Source of the DNA: a virus
Strand: one strand, 5' to 3'
Length of the DNA: 11,709 nt
Virus genome (UHGV): UHGV-0058547
Shown here: positions 746 through 11,709 of the stretch, piece after piece
Numbering within the stretch: the stretch's first letter is position 1
Layout of the letters: the number at the start of each line of letters is the position of its first letter
Position numbers and translations under genes: made by a program
Notes under the pieces: model-generated
The model's database searches: none
What the model was told of the DNA's origin: nothing
The model's input: only the letters and a program-made list of their open reading frames with translations

Positions 746-988
746 TCAAACCGCTTTTGAAGAGAATTTTTTGAAAATACGAATGGCAAGCCCAGCGCCA
801 ACCACAGCAACAACAACAGGCCATACTTTACCAATGAGATCATTTGCCTGAGTCAACAAAGCATCCATTGCCTGACCTGCATAATCAGTACCACCTGTAG
901 CGCCTTCAGCCGCAAAAGAACTTGCAGAAATAAAAAGCGCAGTTGAAGCCAGAGCAATTTTATATTTAACAGTAGACAGAATTTTCAT
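746..988 (-). CDS. gVIII: Major coat protein pVIII precursor
   Basis: 80 aa with signal peptide ending SSFA|AEG; mature part AEGATGG...[26 protein letters not shown] closely resembles the M13 (…FKKFTSKAS) and IKe (…FKKFSSKAV) coat proteins (recalled). GGAG 9 nt upstream of the ATG. Confidence 0.93.
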
Positions 989-1007: not shown

Positions 1008-1103
1008 TTACATTAATCGGTCAGAAAATGATTTAAATGAACCGACCGCATAGAAAAGGGCAAAACCAAAGGTATAAGCCCCGAAGAAATAAACGATATA
1101 CAT
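1008..1103 (-). CDS. gIX: Minor coat protein pIX-like (31 aa, hydrophobic)
   Basis: MYIVYFFGAYTFGFALFYAVGSFKSFSDRLM. The ATG overlaps the gVII stop (TAATG). Size, hydrophobicity and position match Ff gIX; no strong sequence identity is expected. Confidence 0.7.
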   Translation of the reverse strand: MYIVYFFGAYTFGFALFYAVGSFKSFSDRLM

Positions 1104-1189
1104 TAACGAAAGACCCCCGCAGTAATCGCGCCGAGGCCAAAAGAAATAACGATGCCAGACGCTATCAAAATTTGAATAACATCGTCCAT
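1103..1189 (-). CDS. gVII: Minor coat protein pVII-like (28 aa)
   Basis: MDDVIQILIASGIVISFGLGAITAGVFR, translated by hand from the minus strand. The C-terminal half resembles M13 pVII ...ISVVLCFALGIIAGGQR (recalled). Lies between the gV-position ORF and gIX. Confidence 0.7.
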   Translation of the reverse strand: MDDVIQILIASGIVISFGLGAITAGVFR

Positions 1190-1191
1190 AT

Positions 1192-1509
1192 TTAACCTTT
1201 GATCTCTGCGATGCCACCATCGGAAGCAACATTATAAGTTACACCTTCCCTACCCTCCATTGACCACGCACGGACATAGACAGGAATTTGAACTAATTTC
1301 CCAATGAAAGCATTCGCCTGGTTCATTAGACCTGCGTTAACGAGAGCCTGAGAAACTCGAATAATAATTTGATCCTGCTTTGTACCACCAAAACCATCAG
1401 GTATTTCAAGGCCAATACCAATTTCATTATAATAGCCCTGACCATTAACTTTATTACGTTGGCGGGCTCCCAACATTTTACCCTTAACGAAAAGACCATA
1501 ATTAGACAT
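1192..1509 (-). CDS. 105-aa protein in the gV position; candidate ssDNA-binding protein
   Basis: ATG at 1509 with AAGGAA 7 nt upstream; placed between gII and gVII as gV is in Ff phages. Longer than Ff/IKe gVp (87-88 aa) and not obviously similar to M13 gVp by eye, so the function is assigned from position only. Confidence 0.55.
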   Translation of the reverse strand: MSNYGLFVKGKMLGARQRNKVNGQGYYNEIGIGLEIPDGFGGTKQDQIIIRVSQALVNAGLMNQANAFIGKLVQIPVYVRAWSMEGREGVTYNVASDGGIAEIKG

Positions 1510-1520
1510 ATTACTTTCCT

Positions 1521-2615
1521 TTAATGCCAGCTACTGGCGTGCGAAATACGGTTGTAATCGAAAATAAAACCTTTCTCATAAATCCATAAGGGGATTTCCG
1601 CTGGCTTGGCTTCCAGCGTTCTTATTAGCGGAACAACGTTATTAGAGTCTGGTGAATCACAATAGAAATTAATATCGATACCGAACGAAAGCAATTCTCT
1701 TCTATGGCGATAAAAAGTGTTATGAGGTAACATTTCTTTCATGTTAGCCCCTTGTTTCCAAAGTAAATAAGTTGACTGTATTTTTCTTGGCAGTTTCGTT
1801 ATTTTTTCATCACTTAAAATAGCATTCTGATTCATTTCTATTCTCCCTACATATTCAGAGAATAATTGACGTGGTGTTTTCATATTCCAGTTAGCGCCAA
1901 GCGTTAAATTTAAATCAATAAGCTCAGTTGTTCTTAATGTTAATTCAATACGTAATTTATCTTTCGTCCAGTCCAGTAACCCGGCTCGTACAAACTCTTC
2001 GGCTATCTGGTGCCCTTTTTTACCAGAAACGTGTTCATCATATTTTGAATAAAATTTCAGACTCCATCGACGGGAGTTTTTACCTAAATAAACTGTACCG
2101 CCTTTCCCACATGCGCGACCATGGCGTGTTTTAGCTTTAAATTCGGCGGCATAAAGCCATGATCTGACATTTTCCAGCGTAGATAATGAATACATGTAAT
2201 TAATGTCAATACGTGAAATTTTATACTGACCTGCCATAACGGCTTTATAAGACGCTAAATCATGAGGAATATTCAATAAGGATAAAATCCTGGCATAGAC
2301 CGTCAACATGAGCCCTTGTATATCATCCGACCCAACAACAGAATGCCCCTGCAGAAACTTGGAAGGATTACCATCAATGTACAAATGTGTCGCTTTACCT
2401 TCGCCATTAGATCCTATCGATCGTACTTTCATCGTTGCTTCATGCGAACCGCGAACAGTCAGTCGCTTAACGGTTTCCCACTCAATTGCACCGTCAGCAT
2501 CAACGCTGACAACACTCCCCGCCGGAAGCGGTTTGTGTGTGCAAGGGAAAATCCCGGTAAGCCAATCGATCACGAATAAATCCTCAAAATTACAAAAATG
2601 ACGACTTACTAACAC
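1521..2615 (-). CDS. gII: Rolling-circle replication initiation protein pII
   Basis: 364 aa. GNPSKFLQGHSVVGSDD and SNNVVPLIRT align with M13 pII KASPAKVLQGHNVFGTTD and CNNVVPLVRF (recalled). The only in-frame start after the upstream stop is GTG at 2613-2615, with no obvious SD, so the start is uncertain. An in-frame internal start for a pX-like product is possible but not resolved. Confidence 0.85.
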   Translation of the reverse strand: MLVSRHFCNFEDLFVIDWLTGIFPCTHKPLPAGSVVSVDADGAIEWETVKRLTVRGSHEATMKVRSIGSNGEGKATHLYIDGNPSKFLQGHSVVGSDDIQGLMLTVYARILSLLNIPHDLASYKAVMAGQYKISRIDINYMYSLSTLENVRSWLYAAEFKAKTRHGRACGKGGTVYLGKNSRRWSLKFYSKYDEHVSGKKGHQIAEEFVRAGLLDWTKDKLRIELTLRTTELIDLNLTLGANWNMKTPRQLFSEYVGRIEMNQNAILSDEKITKLPRKIQSTYLLWKQGANMKEMLPHNTFYRHRRELLSFGIDINFYCDSPDSNNVVPLIRTLEAKPAEIPLWIYEKGFIFDYNRISHASSWH

Positions 2616-3502: not shown

Positions 3503-4084
3503 GTGAAGATGAGTATGCAACCGAATGAAGAAATGGACCTCAGGAAATTTTACGCAGAGGGAACAGCTGACTACTTAAAAACTAAAATCAAAAAAAGCGA
3601 ACGACTTTTAAAAATAAACCAATATCTATCATTTGCCCTCCCTGTCCTAGTTGGAGGATACGCATCGGTTGATCACAGCTCCAAATATTTTGATTTTTTA
3701 GTTTGGGGCACAGGGATATTATCAGTGATAGTCTTGCTTTCTAATTTATACACACTGGTCATGAAGACTGATGAAAATTTATCTCGATATCTGGAATCAT
3801 ACTCTTTCAATAAACTCCTAACTGATTTGTATGGCGAACTGTCGAGCATGTTTAAATCAAAGACAGGCAACCAGCAACCCGCTAACCATTTGTTTTCAGT
3901 GATAAAATCAAAAGATGACTTCAATGCCAAGGAAGATGAAAAATATGTTAGCAATAATGATAAGAAACGGATTATGTTCGACATTCTGGTAAAGAAAAAT
4001 AAAGAATGCGTACGTTGCAATAAAATACCGACTAAATTTAACAAGCGGAAAGGTTGCACAAATTGTGGCAATCTCGTGAAATAA
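3503..4084 (+). CDS. 2-TM membrane protein with C-terminal CxxC-x12-CxxC zinc ribbon (SLATT-like topology); function unknown
   Basis: N-terminal helix, then TM hairpin YLSFALPVLVGGYASV / LVWGTGILSVIVLLSNLYTLV, a charged helical region, and C-terminal ECVRCNKIPTKFNKRKGCTNCGN. Start ambiguous between GTG 3503, ATG 3509 and ATG 3515; GAAAGG precedes. Confidence 0.6.
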   Translation: MKMSMQPNEEMDLRKFYAEGTADYLKTKIKKSERLLKINQYLSFALPVLVGGYASVDHSSKYFDFLVWGTGILSVIVLLSNLYTLVMKTDENLSRYLESYSFNKLLTDLYGELSSMFKSKTGNQQPANHLFSVIKSKDDFNAKEDEKYVSNNDKKRIMFDILVKKNKECVRCNKIPTKFNKRKGCTNCGNLVK

Positions 4085-4287: not shown

Positions 4288-4329
4288 AATCTAAAAGATT
4301 TTGGTTCGCACAATGACGTTATGCTAAAG

Positions 4330-4366
4330 AGGCCGCTGCGGGATTCGATTTTCGCAGCGGCCTTTT
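4330..4366 (+). terminator. Rho-independent terminator ending the RHH/membrane-protein operon
   Basis: 11-bp GC-rich stem AGGCCGCTGCG (4330-4340) pairing with CGCAGCGGCCT (4353-4363), 12-nt loop, then TTTT. Confidence 0.75.
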
Positions 4367-4396
4367 CAACATAACGAGTCCTACATTATGCGCACC
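4364..4396 (-). other. dif-like XerC/XerD recombination site (site 2), long central region
   Basis: Minus strand reads GGTGCGCATAA-TGTAGGACTCG-TTATGTTGAAA. E. coli dif is GGTGCGCATAA-TGTATA-TTATGTTAAAT. XerC arm 11/11, XerD arm 9/11, central region 11 nt. Confidence 0.65.
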
Positions 4397-4555
4397 AACA
4401 TAAACCAAGGGAGAATCCAGTGATTTGTGGACATCCTTGTTCTCGCAGAATATGGATGTGCTGAGTCTGGTTGGTTCGCCTAACGGTTGAAATGTCTTGC
4501 GGCCTTCACTGGGCTTGTTGAGTGTTCTGAATGTTCGCTTCAGGAACTGATTCAA

Positions 4556-5647
4556 ATGAAACGATTAATACTTGCTGCGACTGTAATAAGTGCAAGCCTG
4601 CTGCCATTTACCTGTTCGGCAAATGCCGACTCACTGGGTATCAATAAAGACTGCGATAACCATCCTGTCAGCCAGTACGGCATGGACACCATTACCGCAT
4701 TCAGTCAGTACAAGACGGAATCGAAAAAATTTAAAGATGCACTGACTGCGTTCTGCAATAAAGGCAAAACCATGGGCGACATGGGATTTGAAGCTGCCAA
4801 TGCTCACTCTCTTGCTGAAGCAAGGAAATGGACTGACTCCAGTCTTCCGGGGGGAAATGAAGAGCAGAAAAAATTTTCAGCAGCCATGGGGAGCCTGCTT
4901 TACTATGCAATGCTGAATGGATTCTCTGGTTTTGACTATCCCAGGTCGCCCGAGCAAAAAGAAAAATCAGTAAGCACATTTAATCCAAATGAGATATGTG
5001 ATGACATATCATCTAAAGCAGCCAAATATTCAACCTCGAATCTCCCCCCTCAAGTACAGATTTCATTAGCTGAGTGGAATCAAATCAAAGGCGAGTTTCA
5101 GATGGTGTGTTTTGCGGGAGTTATGGCGGGTAACAATCGCCAGTCGGTTGACTCAAAAATATTGGCTGGAATGAATGATATAGGCCCAGAAGTGAATTTG
5201 AGTGCTTATCGTTCTGGTTCGGAATACCCAAAGCCTCGCAGCAAAAACAACACGGAAAAAATTGATGCTACAGCAAGGGAGAAAGCGGCTGCAAAGAAGA
5301 AAGCAGATGCAGCCAGAAAACAAAGTGCCACCAACAAAACAAAGCAGGCTGACGATTATAAATCCAGGAGTGTTCGCCTTGACTCCCCCGATTTTCAACG
5401 CTTTCAGTCTTCACTCAGAAATGAATTTATGCGGCGAATTGGTGATGCGAAGCGTTTTTCAGGAAAAGAATGTTCAATAAATGTCTGGATGTCACAGAAA
5501 GGTGAGGTTCTGTCAGCCAGGAAGGAATCCGGAGATGAAGAGCTTTGCTCTGTGGTATTGCAGGCATCGAAGGGAATGAGGCTTAGCCCTATGAGTAATG
5601 AAGTTTACGGAGTGTTCCGTAATCCATCCCTCAACTTTAAATTCTAG
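4556..5647 (+). CDS. Secreted (signal-peptide) protein with K/A-rich helical linker and C-terminal TolA domain III-like domain
   Basis: Likely start MKRLILAATVISASLLPFTCSANA (signal peptide) at 4556, AGGA 10 nt upstream. C-terminus GKECSINVWMSQKGEVLSARKESGDEELCSVVLQASKGMRLSPMSNEVYGVFRNPSLNFKF aligns with the E. coli TolA C-terminus GKTCTLRIKLAPDGMLLDIKPEGGDPALCQAALAAAKLAKIPKPPSQAVYEVFKNAPLDFKP (recalled). Preceded by a Lys/Ala-rich stretch like TolA domain II. No TM anchor. Confidence 0.7.
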   Translation: MKRLILAATVISASLLPFTCSANADSLGINKDCDNHPVSQYGMDTITAFSQYKTESKKFKDALTAFCNKGKTMGDMGFEAANAHSLAEARKWTDSSLPGGNEEQKKFSAAMGSLLYYAMLNGFSGFDYPRSPEQKEKSVSTFNPNEICDDISSKAAKYSTSNLPPQVQISLAEWNQIKGEFQMVCFAGVMAGNNRQSVDSKILAGMNDIGPEVNLSAYRSGSEYPKPRSKNNTEKIDATAREKAAAKKKADAARKQSATNKTKQADDYKSRSVRLDSPDFQRFQSSLRNEFMRRIGDAKRFSGKECSINVWMSQKGEVLSARKESGDEELCSVVLQASKGMRLSPMSNEVYGVFRNPSLNFKF

Positions 5648-6102
5648 TTCATGCCGGGTAAGAGTCTTCACTTTTGTGGGGATTCTTATTTTCTTTTTGT
5701 TGTTATTGTCAGCTCAAGCCGCATGGCTCTCCTGCGGAGGGCTTAATATTGGGATAATATTGAAACATCAAAGACAGATGCAGATAAGTACAGAAAACCG
5801 ATAATAACAATTAAACAGTAAGTCTGTATAAGAGAATAACAGAATATATAAAAGAATTAACCCCGGTTGGCGATTTGGCGATGGTAACACAGATATTTAA
5901 ATCTGTAAAATGGTTATATTTATTTTTTTATTTACCCACCCTATCGGGTGATTCCGGCGCAGTCCTGACCCTGAGTACGCTCCCTGTAATGCACCATGCG
6001 CAACGCCAGAGTCAGTGGCAATGCAAAGCCATGACTAAGGCCAAAATCACCCCAAAACCGCATACAGGCAGTCAGCGGTCACGATGTAAGCAAAATACGA
6101 GA

Positions 6103-6122
6103 TACTGTATAAATAAACAGCC
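6103..6122. promoter_or_regulatory. LexA (SOS) box-like palindrome TACTGTATAAATAAACAGCC
   Basis: CTGT-N8-ACAG with an AT-rich spacer; 16/20 matches to the E. coli consensus TACTGTATATATATACAGTA. Contains a TATAAA -10-like hexamer. Lies in an 0.8-kb noncoding stretch about 340 bp upstream of the HNH_3-like gene. Confidence 0.5.
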
Positions 6123-6460
6123 CTGCAATTGTCAGGCATATGCGCCCTCTCACACTGACACCCCCCCTGTTCCGCCCTGTTTATTGCATCTGTACAGCCA
6201 TCTGAGCGCATCCGGCTGCAACCTGACGCATTTGCATGTGCCGTATTAATGATGCCACACAGAGCGCCTGACGGTTTGTACCATCATCTGTCACAATTCA
6301 TTGTTTGAAAAATTTTACATTTTATTTTTTGAAGTGATTACATAAATATAATCCATCTCTCCGGCATGAGTGCCTGACTGAAGGTGAATCGAAAAAGAAG
6401 GACCCGCCCCGATTCTTTTTACTCCCTTCCCTTTCAGTTAAATCACGCAGGAGAAATATC

Positions 6461-7408
6461 ATGCCCCGCTACAAAAAAGGTATCCGTAATAATTGCTTTC
6501 ATCAAAATTATACTCATGACGTATTGTTCCCCGGCGCAACATTCAGAACCCGACATAATGGAGAATGCGCCATTCTTGGCCGCTCTGATGATAAATCAAG
6601 GCGAGGCTATTATGTCGTGGAATTCAAAGACAGTGGCATCATCAAGGAAGCCTATGGCTCGCATATTAAAACTGGTTCTGTATCAGACGAAGCTTTTCCA
6701 TCATCGGAGGAAGAACGACGAAAGTTACTGATGACACCAAAATATTACGGCGTCGGATATATTGGTAATGGATGTCATTCAACTATTGAAAACACCCGAA
6801 CACACCAAAGAACGAGAGCATTCATACTCTGGCATAACATGCTGGCAAGGTGCTACATGACAACCAAAGGGAAGCAGTATTTTAAAGGCTACAAAGGTGT
6901 CACTGTATGCGAGCGATGGCATAACTTTCAGAACTTCTGCAATGACCTTCCAAAATTGCATGGCTACAACAAATGGAAGGATAATCCGGGAGAGTATGAG
7001 CTCGATAAGGATTACTCACATCGCCGGATTTATTCTGCTGACACGGTGGCATTTATCAGCACAGAAGAAAATGCCAGGGAAGCTGGATTACGACGCGTTG
7101 CCATGAAGATTCCTTCCGGGCATTATCATGAAATAAATAAAATTCGAGATGAGATATTAATGGAGGCTGAAGATGAATTAAAAAACAATCAAATTCATTA
7201 TGAAGTTGTTCTTGACGGGAATATGAAAGTAATCCTGTGTGAAACTCCTTATGGCACAGTGTTGTTCTGGCCTCTCACAAAAAAGATTCAGCGTAATTGC
7301 TACATGATTGATGGTGATGTACAGGTTTATGTTTATTACCTGCGCTGGCTCATACTTCAGTGGGAAAACAGAAATCCCGACATAAACTGTGTTGCTACAA
7401 CCTGTTGA
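6461..7408 (+). CDS. 315-aa protein with central degenerate HNH_3-like module; putative DNA-binding protein or inactive homing-endonuclease relative
   Basis: AGGAG 7 nt upstream of the ATG. Central motif W-HNM-LARCY ... YFKGYKGVTVCERWHNFQNFCND ... YELDKDYSHRRIYSADTVAFISTEENAR matches the phage HNH_3-family pattern W..M..RC ... YGGRGI.VC..W..F..F ... IDRID.DGNY.P.NCRW.T..EQ..N (recalled), but the canonical catalytic residues are not evident. Confidence 0.6.
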   Translation: MPRYKKGIRNNCFHQNYTHDVLFPGATFRTRHNGECAILGRSDDKSRRGYYVVEFKDSGIIKEAYGSHIKTGSVSDEAFPSSEEERRKLLMTPKYYGVGYIGNGCHSTIENTRTHQRTRAFILWHNMLARCYMTTKGKQYFKGYKGVTVCERWHNFQNFCNDLPKLHGYNKWKDNPGEYELDKDYSHRRIYSADTVAFISTEENAREAGLRRVAMKIPSGHYHEINKIRDEILMEAEDELKNNQIHYEVVLDGNMKVILCETPYGTVLFWPLTKKIQRNCYMIDGDVQVYVYYLRWLILQWENRNPDINCVATTC

Positions 7409-7589
7409 TGATGCTATAAAATAGTCATAAAATAACCGGCATTTCACAATGCTATCTATTAATAAGAAGAAACGAACATTCAGGATGTATCTGTAATTCC
7501 GCTGTTGCAGTGATTTTCTGTGCCAGAAAACAAGTGACAACGTCTGGCAGCTCATTGCAGAAGGCTAAATGCCAGCACTTCGTGCAGTC

Positions 7590-7619
7590 ATTTAACATGT
7601 TCAACACATTATGCGCACC
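7590..7619 (-). other. dif-like XerC/XerD recombination site (site 1)
   Basis: Minus strand reads GGTGCGCATAA-TGTGTTGA-ACATGTTAAAT. XerC arm 11/11 to E. coli dif; XerD arm 9/11, with the last 9 nt ATGTTAAAT identical; 8-nt central region. Confidence 0.7.
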
Positions 7620-8342: not shown

Positions 8343-8391
8343 TTTGATGGATAGCGAGCAGGGCTCACGCACCTACCCGCTATCCATCAAA
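8343..8391. repeat. Perfect 14-bp inverted repeat (TTTGATGGATAGCG ... CGCTATCCATCAAA) with 21-nt spacer, overlapping the gIV stop
   Basis: 8343-8356 is the exact reverse complement of 8378-8391. Position corresponds to the start of the Ff intergenic region (gIV terminator / packaging-signal hairpins). Confidence 0.6.
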
Positions 8392-9652
8392 GTGGACGAA
8401 TGATATGTGCTGTAAGCAAAATATACATAATACGCTGTTCATTGCTGTCTGCCTTGCTACTGAAAATCCAGCCTATAAGAGGAATTTTACTTATAACTGG
8501 AACTGAACGCTCGGCATTGCTGAACGATGAATCGATAAGCCCCCCCAATAACAACGTCTGACCATCCTTAATCTGGACTGTCGTCTGAATCTGGCGCTGA
8601 TTAGTAATAATATCGGATGCCTGATCATCATTGCTGATTGAATCAGCGCGAGTGTCGATAGTCAGAACTAGTTGCCCGTTACCCATGACAACAGGCGTTA
8701 CCTTGAGAGAAACGCCAACATCATGACGCTCGATAGTCTGAAACGGATTATTTACCCCGGCAGATTCGCCCGTTACCTTTCCGGTGATAAACGGCACATT
8801 CTTACCTACGGAAATGTAACCAGTCTGACCAGACTGAGTAAGAATACGCGGCGTTGAAATCACCTTAGAGCGTGAATTACTCTGGACAGCACGCAGAGAC
8901 AGCGCCAACACGTTACCATCAAAAATACCAAAAGAACCGCCCGCCGTAGAAAGAGCGCTACCCAGTGCAGAAGTATTAAAGCCCCCCGCAACCTTATGAC
9001 CGGATGCAGAACCTGCCGCAAACGATAAATCAACGCCATCAGACAAGCTGGTTTCAAACATCAGCGACTGAATGAGAACCTGATCGCGGGCAACATCCAC
9101 AGAATTGATAAAATCGGACAGAACCGGCAGCAGCTCGTCAGGCGCAGAAACAATCAGCGAGTTATTGCCTGGATAATCCACGACATTACCACCACCATTA
9201 GAATCAAGATAAATTTTAATCAGTTGCTGAACATCGGACGATCTAACTTTTGTCAGCTTAAAATTTCTGACCGTAAGCGCCACAGGTACTGGCTGGTAAG
9301 ATGGCTCAGAAGGAAAAGTATCATAAGACTGGTTATCAGAATCATCGGAATCCGAAACCATCTGTGAAGGTAATTTAGACGGCAAAGAGACTACCGCAGG
9401 ATTGCCAGAAAGCATGACAAAACCGTTAGCATTCAGAACAGACTTAAAGAAATCATCAATATTTGTTGGATTAACATCAGCATTAAATACGGTTACGTTT
9501 CCTTTAATATCAGGATTAACAATAACAGGCTTGCCAGTTTTTGAAGAATACCACTGAACAAATGAGCGAACAGATGAATTATTTAAATTAACAGTTTCAG
9601 CAGAAACGCAGAATGAACAGGCAAATAAAAAAGCAACAATAACAGAGCGCAT
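8387..9652 (-). CDS. gIV: Secretin pIV (phage export channel)
   Basis: 421 aa from ATG 9652 (AGGAG 8 nt upstream). N-terminus MRSVIVAFLFACSFCVSAETVNLNNSSVRSFVQWY parallels M13 pIV MKLLNVINFVFLMFVSSSSFAQVIEMNNSPLRDFVTWY; conserved secretin core GGSFGIFDGNVLALSLRAVQSNS..., VPFITGKVTGESAGVNNPFQTIERHDVGVSLKV, DGQTLLLGGL, IPLIGWIFSS (recalled). The track start at 9745 is a spurious upstream extension overlapping gI. Confidence 0.93.
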   Translation of the reverse strand: MRSVIVAFLFACSFCVSAETVNLNNSSVRSFVQWYSSKTGKPVIVNPDIKGNVTVFNADVNPTNIDDFFKSVLNANGFVMLSGNPAVVSLPSKLPSQMVSDSDDSDNQSYDTFPSEPSYQPVPVALTVRNFKLTKVRSSDVQQLIKIYLDSNGGGNVVDYPGNNSLIVSAPDELLPVLSDFINSVDVARDQVLIQSLMFETSLSDGVDLSFAAGSASGHKVAGGFNTSALGSALSTAGGSFGIFDGNVLALSLRAVQSNSRSKVISTPRILTQSGQTGYISVGKNVPFITGKVTGESAGVNNPFQTIERHDVGVSLKVTPVVMGNGQLVLTIDTRADSISNDDQASDIITNQRQIQTTVQIKDGQTLLLGGLIDSSFSNAERSVPVISKIPLIGWIFSSKADSNEQRIMYILLTAHIIRPL

Positions 9653-9659
9653 AATAATA

Positions 9660-10754
9660 TTACTCCTGACAGGTAACAGTCTGTAAATAACGGCCTTTTC
9701 TAATAACAACACGACAGGCATCTTTAATATCAACGGAATAACCATCTTTAATCAAATCAAAATACTGATATTTCATACCTTTTGCATCAACAAACGTAAC
9801 GGAAACGTCAAAGCCAAGTTGTGAAAAAGAATTAATAGAAAGTCGGGGTAAGTCACTGGACGAATCAGGCGTTACCGCCCTCGCCTGTTCAGCATAAGCA
9901 GATTTAATAGCTGAGATTTCATCAACATTCTTTCCAGACTGGAGCCAGAAACCAAACGCAAGCCCCAGCGCCAAAAAAGAAAGCATTAATATAAGACGGT
10001 TCGATTTGCGAAAATAAATTTTAGTGAGGCGCATATAATAATTAAATCCTCTGTGAACAGAAAATTGACCGTGCGTGATAAATGGTGGCAAAAGCGAAAA
10101 TGCGCCATGAGGATAATTATCTGTGAACGCTTGTTTGGTATTGTAAGCAGAATAAAGAGATTTTCCTGTATATATCCATTTATCAACAGTGATTGAATTA
10201 ACATTATCACCATATTTGACAATGCCAAAGTGTACCTTTGGTAAAGAAAATCTCGCCCCTGAAACCAAATTCATAATGGAGCCAACAAAAGGAATGTTTA
10301 ATTTATCTGAACGGCGACAATAAACAACATGCTCAGCAAGCGCCAGACGAGCTTGCTTATCCATTATCGAAATATCCTGAATCAAAAATATAATATCCCA
10401 GCCTAATTTTCTGGCATGTAAAAACCAGTCAATAACAGGTTGTCTGTCTTTATCACCCCATGAGCGGGAATTAAACCAAGTACCACATTCATCAAGTACA
10501 AGGAGGCCATTACGGGATTCATCGTAAGATGTATTCCCAATACCAATAGCAAGTAAATCATTTAATGAAGGCTTGTCAGGAATGCGAATAACGCGCGTTT
10601 TTTTCGCATAACGCCCAACCATAGGCATATTATGCAATTTAAGATCAAGATTAGTGGCAACAGGACAACCCTTAGCAAGTCTTTCCTGTATTCTGGAAAC
10701 ACTAACAAGTGTCTTGCCTGAGCCTAATTTGCCTGTTACTACATAAACCGCCAT
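9660..10754 (-). CDS. gI: Assembly ATPase pI (Zot-like)
   Basis: MAVYVVTGKLGSGKTLVS... with Walker A; long colinear similarity to M13 pI MAVYFVTGKLGSGKTLVSVGKIQDKI...LLVLDECGTWFNTRSW...DWFLHARKLGWDIIFLVQD...AEHVVYCRR (recalled). ATG immediately follows the gVI stop (TAAATG). Confidence 0.93.
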   Translation of the reverse strand: MAVYVVTGKLGSGKTLVSVSRIQERLAKGCPVATNLDLKLHNMPMVGRYAKKTRVIRIPDKPSLNDLLAIGIGNTSYDESRNGLLVLDECGTWFNSRSWGDKDRQPVIDWFLHARKLGWDIIFLIQDISIMDKQARLALAEHVVYCRRSDKLNIPFVGSIMNLVSGARFSLPKVHFGIVKYGDNVNSITVDKWIYTGKSLYSAYNTKQAFTDNYPHGAFSLLPPFITHGQFSVHRGFNYYMRLTKIYFRKSNRLILMLSFLALGLAFGFWLQSGKNVDEISAIKSAYAEQARAVTPDSSSDLPRLSINSFSQLGFDVSVTFVDAKGMKYQYFDLIKDGYSVDIKDACRVVIRKGRYLQTVTCQE

Positions 10755-11096
10755 TTAAATCACCCTGTTTGCATAATCAAGAAATTTTTGTTTTAAATCG
10801 AAAACAAAAACACTGATACGAGTAACCATAATAACGTTAACACACGCCTGAAAATGGTCAGGCAATACAGACGCCATTAAATGGGAGAAATCAGCAGGTA
10901 AACCGTTATACATGACCTCAGCAAGGTACTGCATTAAAAGCGTAACAGTTGTTGTAATTAATGCGACCAATGCAAAGGCGATTAATCCTGTTCTGGTAGC
11001 AAGTCGAGCTAAAAAAACCGCCACATAGCCAATAAACAAAGGAACAAGACCAATAAGAAAACGCAACAATGCAGGAATACCTAATAATAAAGGCAT
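10755..11096 (-). CDS. gVI: Minor coat protein pVI
   Basis: MPLLLGIPALLRFLIG... versus M13 pVI MPVLLGIPLLLRFLGF... (recalled). ATG at 11096 overlaps the gIII TGA by one base; the track's GTG at 11099 is one codon upstream. Confidence 0.88.
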   Translation of the reverse strand: MPLLLGIPALLRFLIGLVPLFIGYVAVFLARLATRTGLIAFALVALITTTVTLLMQYLAEVMYNGLPADFSHLMASVLPDHFQACVNVIMVTRISVFVFDLKQKFLDYANRVI

Positions 11097-11709
11097 CACT
11101 CACCCCCTTTGCGAAGCAATGAAGTTAAAGAAGTAAAGACATACCAGAACGTAAGGCAATAAAAAACCCATGAAAGAACATCTTTAATAGTCAGTAATTT
11201 ATCGCAACCAATATCAATCTGATAAACCTCTCCGGGAAAAATAATAAAATCAGAGCAGCCGTTACCATTGGGTAAATTAGGCAGCATAGCACCTTTATTT
11301 AAAAATGCTTCCCATAAAGCACCGTGAGAATCCTTTTCAATTCCCAATTCAGAATCAGCTAAAGTAGAAGCGCCATCTAATTCAGAGTCGCCCTTTCCAT
11401 AACGAGAATCACCACCTGAAGGGTCAGCAAAACGGCCAGCCCCCCGCGTAAGATTGTTAATGGAATCGTCAAGACGATTTATATTATTCCTGGTTTGTTC
11501 ATCGGCATTTTTTTTATCATCTGATGAAGTGTCTTTCTCCGTTAATTTATCATGAATATCGCTGGCTATTTTGGGTGAAGCACCTTCGATCGCAGACTGA
11601 ATATCACCTTTAGAAAGACTGGAACCACTAGAGCCACCGCCAGAACTACCGCCAGAACTACCGCCAGAACTACCGCCAGAACTACCGCCACCGGACTCAC
11701 CACCGGACT
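11096..11709 (-). CDS. gIII: Adsorption/minor coat protein pIII, C-terminal portion (partial; ORF enters from the right edge)
   Basis: Frame is open from the window edge to the TGA at 11096-11098 (translated by hand). C-terminus ...NLPNGNGCSDFIIFPGEVYQIDIGCDKLLTIKDVLSWVFYCLTFWYVFTSLTSLLRKGGE parallels M13 g3p ...ECRPFVFGAGKPYEFSIDCDKINLFRGVFAFLLYVATFMYVFSTFANILRNKES (recalled). Preceded by (GGSS)n and GGES linker repeats. Confidence 0.88.
   Translation of the reverse strand, partial: SGGESGGGSSGGSSGGSSGGSSGGGSSGSSLSKGDIQSAIEGASPKIASDIHDKLTEKDTSSDDKKNADEQTRNNINRLDDSINNLTRGAGRFADPSGGDSRYGKGDSELDGASTLADSELGIEKDSHGALWEAFLNKGAMLPNLPNGNGCSDFIIFPGEVYQIDIGCDKLLTIKDVLSWVFYCLTFWYVFTSLTSLLRKGGE
11641..11688 (-). 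repeat. Four tandem 12-nt repeats (cagaactaccgc) encoding the (GGSS)n linker of pIII
   Basis: Direct reading of 11641-11688; minus-strand translation gives alternating GG/SS. Confidence 0.9.

Follow-up and report, generated by a model that had tools for sequence, protein, structure and literature searches.

What kind of protein occupies the gene V slot, the position of the ssDNA-binding protein gene, in a filamentous prophage whose product at that position does not resemble the gene V proteins (gVp) of M13 or IKe? The stretch of DNA that raises this question (hereafter the window, 11,709 nucleotides in full) represents a single unit of an E. coli prophage that is filamentous (Inoviridae) and of the UPΦ type. 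This assignment was made because the UPΦ901 primers match the window, the forward primer exactly at 100-119 and the reverse primer with two mismatches at 550-569, and because RefSeq E. coli genomes contain an element of approximately 99% identity, frequently in tandem copies. Prophages of the UPΦ type were described by Shapiro and Putonti (2020; PMC7307601).

The core genes of the prophage were located by translation, by profile matches and by comparison with RefSeq homologues, and all of them lie on the minus strand (Table 1). Gene II is identified by matches to PF05144 (E 9e-70) and PF05155 (E 2e-29) and to phrog_17464 at residues 261-360, and gene X lies inside its C-terminal part. For gene IX, the part of the frame that matches phrog_28333 is the last 29 residues of a 74-aa open frame. 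Gene III is split between the two ends of the window, and once these ends are joined its halves are out of frame inside a GGGES/GGS glycine-rich linker repeat; the window thus has the appearance of a unit, circularised or tandemly repeated, that was broken or mis-joined within the repeat. UPΦ901 has been described with a copy of dif for XerCD integration, and a dif site was hence expected here as well. No match to the E. coli dif site was found anywhere in the window with up to three mismatches allowed; the attachment site may be more degenerate in the window, or it may lie outside the prophage unit.

Table 1. Core features of the prophage unit, with coordinates in the window and the basis of each assignment.
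Feature	Coordinates	Strand	Basis or remark
Gene II, rolling-circle replication initiator	1521..2573	-	open frame reaches GTG at 2615; RefSeq homologue 1053 nt
Gene II stop with Shine-Dalgarno AGGAAAG of the gene V ORF	1514..1523	-	sequence read directly
Gene V-position ORF, 105 aa, I2-2-type putative ssDNA-binding protein	1192..1509	-	PF17426
Gene VII, 28 aa, MDDVIQILIASGIVISFGLGAITAGVFR	1103..1189	-	translation; RefSeq homologue 'tail virion protein G7P-2'
Gene IX, 31 aa	1008..1103	-	phrog_28333 'minor head protein', E 3e-8
Gene VIII, major coat protein	746..988	-	PF19199, E 3e-19; phrog_1646, E 4e-33
gVI	10755..11099	-	
gI	9660..10754	-	
gIV	8387..9652/9745	-	
Gene III, in two pieces at the window ends	1-699 and 11096-11709	-	

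The window also carries accessory genes. Among these, and on the strand opposite to the core genes, is a 193-aa ORF (3503-4084, +) that RefSeq annotates as 'mobilome CxxCx(11)CxxC protein'; it ends in a CxxC…CxxC motif and gave no match in Pfam. A cargo of about 3.3 kb (~4300-7600) comprises a TolA-like ORF, a hypothetical ORF annotated in RefSeq, and a 315-aa ORF (6461-7408) for which Pfam likewise returned no match. The TolA-like ORF (4487-5647, +) has a signal-peptide-like N-terminus and a TolA C-terminal domain (PF06519, E 6e-11; TIGR02794 tolA_full, E 4e-16 at residues 256-386). In infection by Ff-type phages, pIII binds domain III of TolA as its co-receptor; a TolA copy encoded by the prophage could therefore exclude superinfecting phages by serving as a decoy, or could interfere in some other way with Tol-dependent entry. 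The cargo is rare: strain C10 was the single one among 5426 complete E. coli genomes to cover at least 80% of the window, and the best matches listed are without the 3.3-kb cargo (65% coverage). In strain C10 (NZ_CP195940.1, locus 1-14952), the prophage occurs as tandem non-identical copies, the first without this cargo and the second with it; after them come a HipA-family toxin and an ESPR autotransporter, both as pseudogene remnants. In other E. coli genomes, the element is found in up to 15-16 places per genome. UPΦ phages have been described with two conserved hypothetical genes, h1 and h2.

The first-pass annotation had placed a 105-aa ORF in the gene V slot, and its coordinates proved exact: on the minus strand, the frame runs from an ATG at 1509 to a TAA at 1194..1192, with gene II upstream and genes VII, IX, and VIII downstream. 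Read on that strand, the sequence leading into it is TAA-AGGAAAGTAAT-ATG, in which an AGGA Shine-Dalgarno, 7 nt before the gene V ATG, shares nucleotides with the gene II stop (1523..1521), and the gene VII ATG (1189) follows 2 nt after the gene V stop. This tight packing of genes II, V, and VII agrees with the arrangement annotated in M13, IKe, and I2-2. The notion that the ORF arose by chance and is no gene carries next to no weight. Its sole merit is that the open frames were listed by a purely mechanical program; it is excluded by the match to Pfam family PF17426 (E 8e-51) and by the homologues described below, which remain conserved down to ∼21% identity, and the proper Shine-Dalgarno, the tight packing, and a RefSeq CDS annotated at the same place also speak against it. 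Two overlapping ORFs, at 1326..1499 (-) and 1369..1524 (+), lie inside or opposite this strongly conserved coding frame and were rejected as spurious.

The family to which the protein belongs is well delimited by profile searches. Residues 2-104 align with model positions 1-108 of the 108 positions of PF17426, 'Putative Gamma DNA binding protein G5P' (Putative_G5P), at E 8.3e-51 (171.1 bits against a cut-off of 25), and PHROGs places the protein in phrog_1547 (PHROG 1547; E 4e-51), which it labels 'unknown function'. Among cultured phages, I2-2 has the closest relative, its gene V product (NP_039617.1; 39% identity over 102 aa, E 2e-30 by BLASTP), which is also a member of PF17426 (E 4e-25), and a RefSeq protein named 'DNA-binding protein' (WP_001734928.1) is 99% identical. 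Of the 5426 complete E. coli genomes, 48 have the gene at 99% identity or more; among these, the median is two copies per genome and the maximum 15. A profile search of 5.8 billion proteins yielded 130 relatives, and HMMER, run exhaustively on 1.84 billion representatives of clusters at 50% identity, yielded 197 at E ≤0.001, nearly all of them single-domain proteins of about 100-120 aa; the giant surface proteins (1251-3490 aa) in the HMMER list, whose scores were put down to repeats or composition, were dismissed. Every one of the 81 relatives that were aligned matches PF17426. Homologues are carried by YpfΦ/CUS-1 (the gene after YPO2274) and by UPΦ901, and the gene V sequences of UPΦ and YpfΦ are more than 85% identical (PMC7307601).

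Two oddities were encountered among the family members. One homologue (144 aa, from an ENA metagenome) is predicted to be a fusion of HTH_3/HTH_19 with PF17426; the prediction may reflect an error of gene calling, or repressor and gene V protein may truly be fused. Two other members are attributed to Gram-positive MAGs (Aerococcus sp. and Corynebacterium sp.), one sharing 64% identity with the E. coli protein, the other nearer to the Pseudomonas members. Because both sequences are close to those of proteobacterial phages, their attribution probably reflects binning contamination and not true hosts.

The absence of any obvious identity to M13 or IKe gVp, which had been noticed from the letters at the outset, was borne out by each method used. 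BLASTP produced chance alignments only (E = 4.9 for M13 and 6.3 for IKe). In a Pfam scan at E ≤10, neither the window protein nor any of its 81 relatives matched PF02303, the family of the canonical gVp, whereas the positive controls did so readily (M13 gVp at E 1e-42, IKe gVp at 2e-23). When the family alignment was compared using hhalign with an alignment of gVp sequences (M13, IKe, PEar6, Dulem virus 52, phiLf, and toucan80), the probability was 0.14% over five aligned columns, which is not significant. However, a control comparison of SSB with gVp alignments was also not significant, indicating that hhalign is too insensitive at such a distance; a very old common ancestry within the OB superfamily would be compatible with these negatives. 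The first-pass annotation had offered two possibilities, a divergent ssDNA-binding protein or a different protein recruited to the slot, and the outcome falls between them: the clear profile match leads not to the canonical gVp but to a separate, catalogued family of putative inovirus ssDNA-binding proteins, PF17426, which is named for the same role.

We turned to predicted structure for likenesses at greater distance. A single-chain AlphaFold2 model of the gene V protein based on the 81-sequence alignment (mean pLDDT 90.5, pTM 0.79) consists, as assigned by DSSP, of β1 (6-19), β2 (26-37), β3 (43-52), helices at 54-58 and 61-67, β4 (72-84), and β5 (87-94). A second model, of a P. aeruginosa member with 28% identity (pLDDT 92.1), has the same topology, and the order in both, β1-β2-β3-helix-β4-β5, is the canonical order of the OB fold. 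The best 50 PDB matches of both models in Foldseek are OB cores of bacterial-type SSBs, many of them bound to ssDNA, with the sole exception of an OB-fold subunit of the trypanosome RNA-editing complex in the search made with the window protein. Represented among them are the SSBs of E. coli, P. aeruginosa, S. aureus, B. subtilis, H. pylori, and mycobacteria, and that of the Plasmodium apicoplast. These matches have a probability of 1.00 and E values of 1e-5 to 1e-4; for the window protein, the superposition is moderate (TM 0.4-0.57, rmsd 5-6 Å), and the second model scored lower. No chain of f1/M13 gVp or Pf3 SSB was among the best 50 PDB matches of either model, and the PDB holds many gVp entries. 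A comparison with predicted viral structures (BFVD) ranked phage SSBs highest, among them the SSB of OH3, a filamentous Thermus phage. The gVp of f1 (1VQB/1GVP) is an all-β OB variant with a DNA-binding wing and a dyad loop, and it is without a helix between β3 and β4; by topology, the predicted gene V protein therefore seems nearer to an SSB core without its tail than to gVp.

The likeness to SSB is confined to the structural models. None of the 81 members matched PF00436 in a Pfam scan at E ≤10, and hhalign gave a probability of 0.1% for the family alignment against an eight-sequence SSB alignment, which was built by hand from seven phage SSBs and the E. coli SSB. A search of PDB chains with the single protein and with the 81-member profile returned only one chance match (E 0.52). 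At the level of sequences and profiles, these searches provided no link from PF17426 to any protein with proven ssDNA binding.

Residues conserved across the family can be placed on the predicted fold. Position 40, in the L23 loop, is aromatic (F/Y) in 100% of the family, and W82, at the end of β4 beside the L45 hairpin, is retained in 99%; aromatic residues are also found at position 78 (F/Y) in 81% and at position 92 (Y92) in 80%. Position 51 is basic (K/R) in 100% of the family and K71 is kept in 98%, the conserved structural glycines are G10, G14, G41, G86, and G89, and the gene V protein has a pI of 9.3. By its location at the end of β4, W82 is presumably comparable to W88 of E. coli SSB, the sequences having been read by eye. 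The family-wide pattern of conservation fits what would be expected of a putative ssDNA-binding surface.

The genomic position of the family is equally constant. In every genome examined, the PF17426 gene directly follows a gene for Phage_CRI/G2P_X_C or another Rep gene and precedes the small coat genes. This set consisted of I2-2, inoviruses from human and lemur saliva, Pseudomonas filamentous phages, a Pasteurella multocida prophage, and a Terasakiella contig, and it included three saliva inoviruses or Dulem viruses and two Pseudomonas phages. None of the inovirus genomes and prophage loci in the set has a second annotated ssDNA-binding protein.

The two replication genes and the remaining core genes of the window differ in their affinities. 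Gene II is 56% identical to that of I2-2 and ∼23% identical to those of M13 and IKe by BLASTP, and gene V, at 39% to I2-2, has no detectable identity to M13 and IKe by the same method. In contrast, genes I, IV, VI, and VIII show identities of 50-73% to IKe and I2-2 where compared (gene VIII being 60% identical to gene VIII of IKe) and of 35-54% to M13. Judged by these identities, the pattern in the window is replication-module exchange of the kind that Stassen et al. (1992) reportedly described for I2-2, with an I2-2/YpfΦ-type module of genes II and V apparently joined to coat and assembly genes like those of IKe, I2-2, and M13. In the published account of the UPΦ group, which names the window-type gene 'gene V', genes II and V form a module whose identity to YpfΦ exceeds 85% and whose similarity to IKe and M13 is below 15% (PMC7307601). 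The description of the protein as atypical thus stands in comparison with M13 and IKe, but not within the I2-2/YpfΦ/UPΦ replication module, of which it is typical.

We propose, with a probability of roughly 80%, that the gene V protein is the plus-strand ssDNA-coating protein of this phage, a functional counterpart of the Ff gVp that comes from a different OB-fold lineage. The analysis establishes the family membership, the synteny, a fold prediction, and the modular pattern; ssDNA binding, its cooperativity, the oligomeric state of the protein, and any repression of gene II translation are inferred. The mechanism we envisage is modelled on Ff biology. The protein would be translated from a gII-gV-gVII operon as a single OB domain without a C-terminal tail and would coat nascent viral plus strands cooperatively, making contact with ssDNA through the aromatics F/Y40, F/Y78, W82, and Y92 and the basic residues K/R51 and K71, on the hairpin loops and barrel face. 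Coating would block synthesis of the complementary strand, i.e., conversion to the replicative form, and the DNA would be delivered to the pI/pIV export machine, at which pVIII would displace the gene V protein. By analogy with Ff, the protein may also down-regulate translation of gene II. Our literature search (I2-2 gene V protein, PF17426, YPO2275) found no ssDNA-binding assay for any member of the family, and Pfam's own name for it carries the word 'putative'.

Two other explanations deserve to be weighed against the coating role. The protein might be a direct, extremely diverged descendant of the Ff/IKe gVp (PF02303) instead of a member of a module-exchanged OB family, as its slot, its similarly small size, its single OB-type domain, and its presumed job are the same, and as gene II still shares PF05144 and ∼23% identity with M13 and IKe; the whole module could be old. 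We nevertheless consider such descent unlikely, because BLASTP, the Pfam scan of the 81 members (E ≤10), and hhalign all came back empty, the models contain a two-part β3-β4 helix that f1 gVp lacks, neither gVp nor Pf3 SSB is represented in the best 50 PDB matches, and module exchange is already known.

An OB-fold protein could also fill this slot and do something other than coat ssDNA, for instance as a regulator of replication or copy number, as an RNA-binding protein that serves only as a translational repressor, or as a host-interaction factor. OB folds are functionally diverse, some of them without DNA binding, and this explanation draws further support from the PHROGs label of phrog_1547 and from the empty search for experiments on the family. 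Even when these jobs are taken jointly, we find them quite improbable: with no second annotated ssDNA-binding protein in the genomes and loci examined, such a phage would have to be reconciled with a strictly conserved gene position, with the conserved aromatic and basic residues, and with structural neighbours that are, at their best, ssDNA-bound SSBs. We thus retain the coating of plus strands as the favoured role of the gene V protein.

The gene V ORF is real and is unrelated in sequence to the M13/IKe protein, but its family is already catalogued in Pfam, RefSeq, and PHROGs. The finding is an ordinary one because the protein falls in PF17426, a family first seen in phage I2-2, and because its non-homology to IKe and M13 has been published for the same phage group (PMC7307601), the observation is already in the literature. 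The UPΦ prophages, of which the gene is a known component, are relatives of YpfΦ/CUS-1, which is found in pathogenic E. coli and Y. pestis, and the dissimilarity between the gene V protein and M13/IKe gVp is in print as a case of filamentous phages exchanging replication modules. PF17426 occurs in prophages linked to virulence, and the main value of the analysis lies in correct annotation: the label could be sharpened from 'putative G5P', 'DNA-binding protein', or 'unknown function' to 'SSB-like OB-fold, probable ssDNA-binding protein'. Novelty, of a mild kind, is limited to the predicted fold of the family, which appears closest to the SSB core; this raises the possibility of a nucleoprotein architecture that is SSB-like rather than gVp-like.

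Among known systems, the nearest is the gene V product of I2-2, which belongs to the same Pfam family over its full length (108 aa, versus 105 aa in the window), has the same place between gII/X and gVII, and has the same I2-2-type gene II as its partner. The window copy resides in an integrated, cargo-carrying UPΦ-type prophage of 11.7 kb whereas I2-2 is a non-integrating phage of 6.7 kb; otherwise nothing essential differs. The gVp of Ff (M13/f1/fd) and IKe occupies the same slot, is likewise a single OB-type β-barrel domain without a tail, and presumably has the same role in sequestering plus strands. It is shorter, however, at 87-88 aa as compared to 105 aa, it has no detectable sequence or profile similarity to the window protein, and it lacks the canonical OB helix between β3 and β4 that is predicted for the window protein. 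With the SSB core (PF00436; E. coli 1EYG, P. aeruginosa 6IRQ), the modelled protein shares the order of strands and helix, the long L23 and L45 hairpins, and a core of ∼105 residues. Bacterial-type SSBs assemble as homotetramers or as dimers of double-OB chains. Cellular SSB possesses in addition a disordered linker and an acidic C-terminal tip of the DDDIPF type, and the window protein has neither, since it ends at residue 105 (…ASDGGIAEIKG), some 10 residues after β5. It is conceivable, although we regard it as rather doubtful, that PF17426 is a tail-less SSB-like OB domain that descended from, or converged on, a cellular or plasmid SSB and joined the inoviruses together with the rolling-circle module. 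If this were true and the assembly were also SSB-like (a tetramer with wrapped DNA), the pre-assembly nucleoprotein of the I2-2/YpfΦ/UPΦ phages would be built unlike the Ff paradigm, in which gVp dimers arrange two antiparallel strands in a rod.
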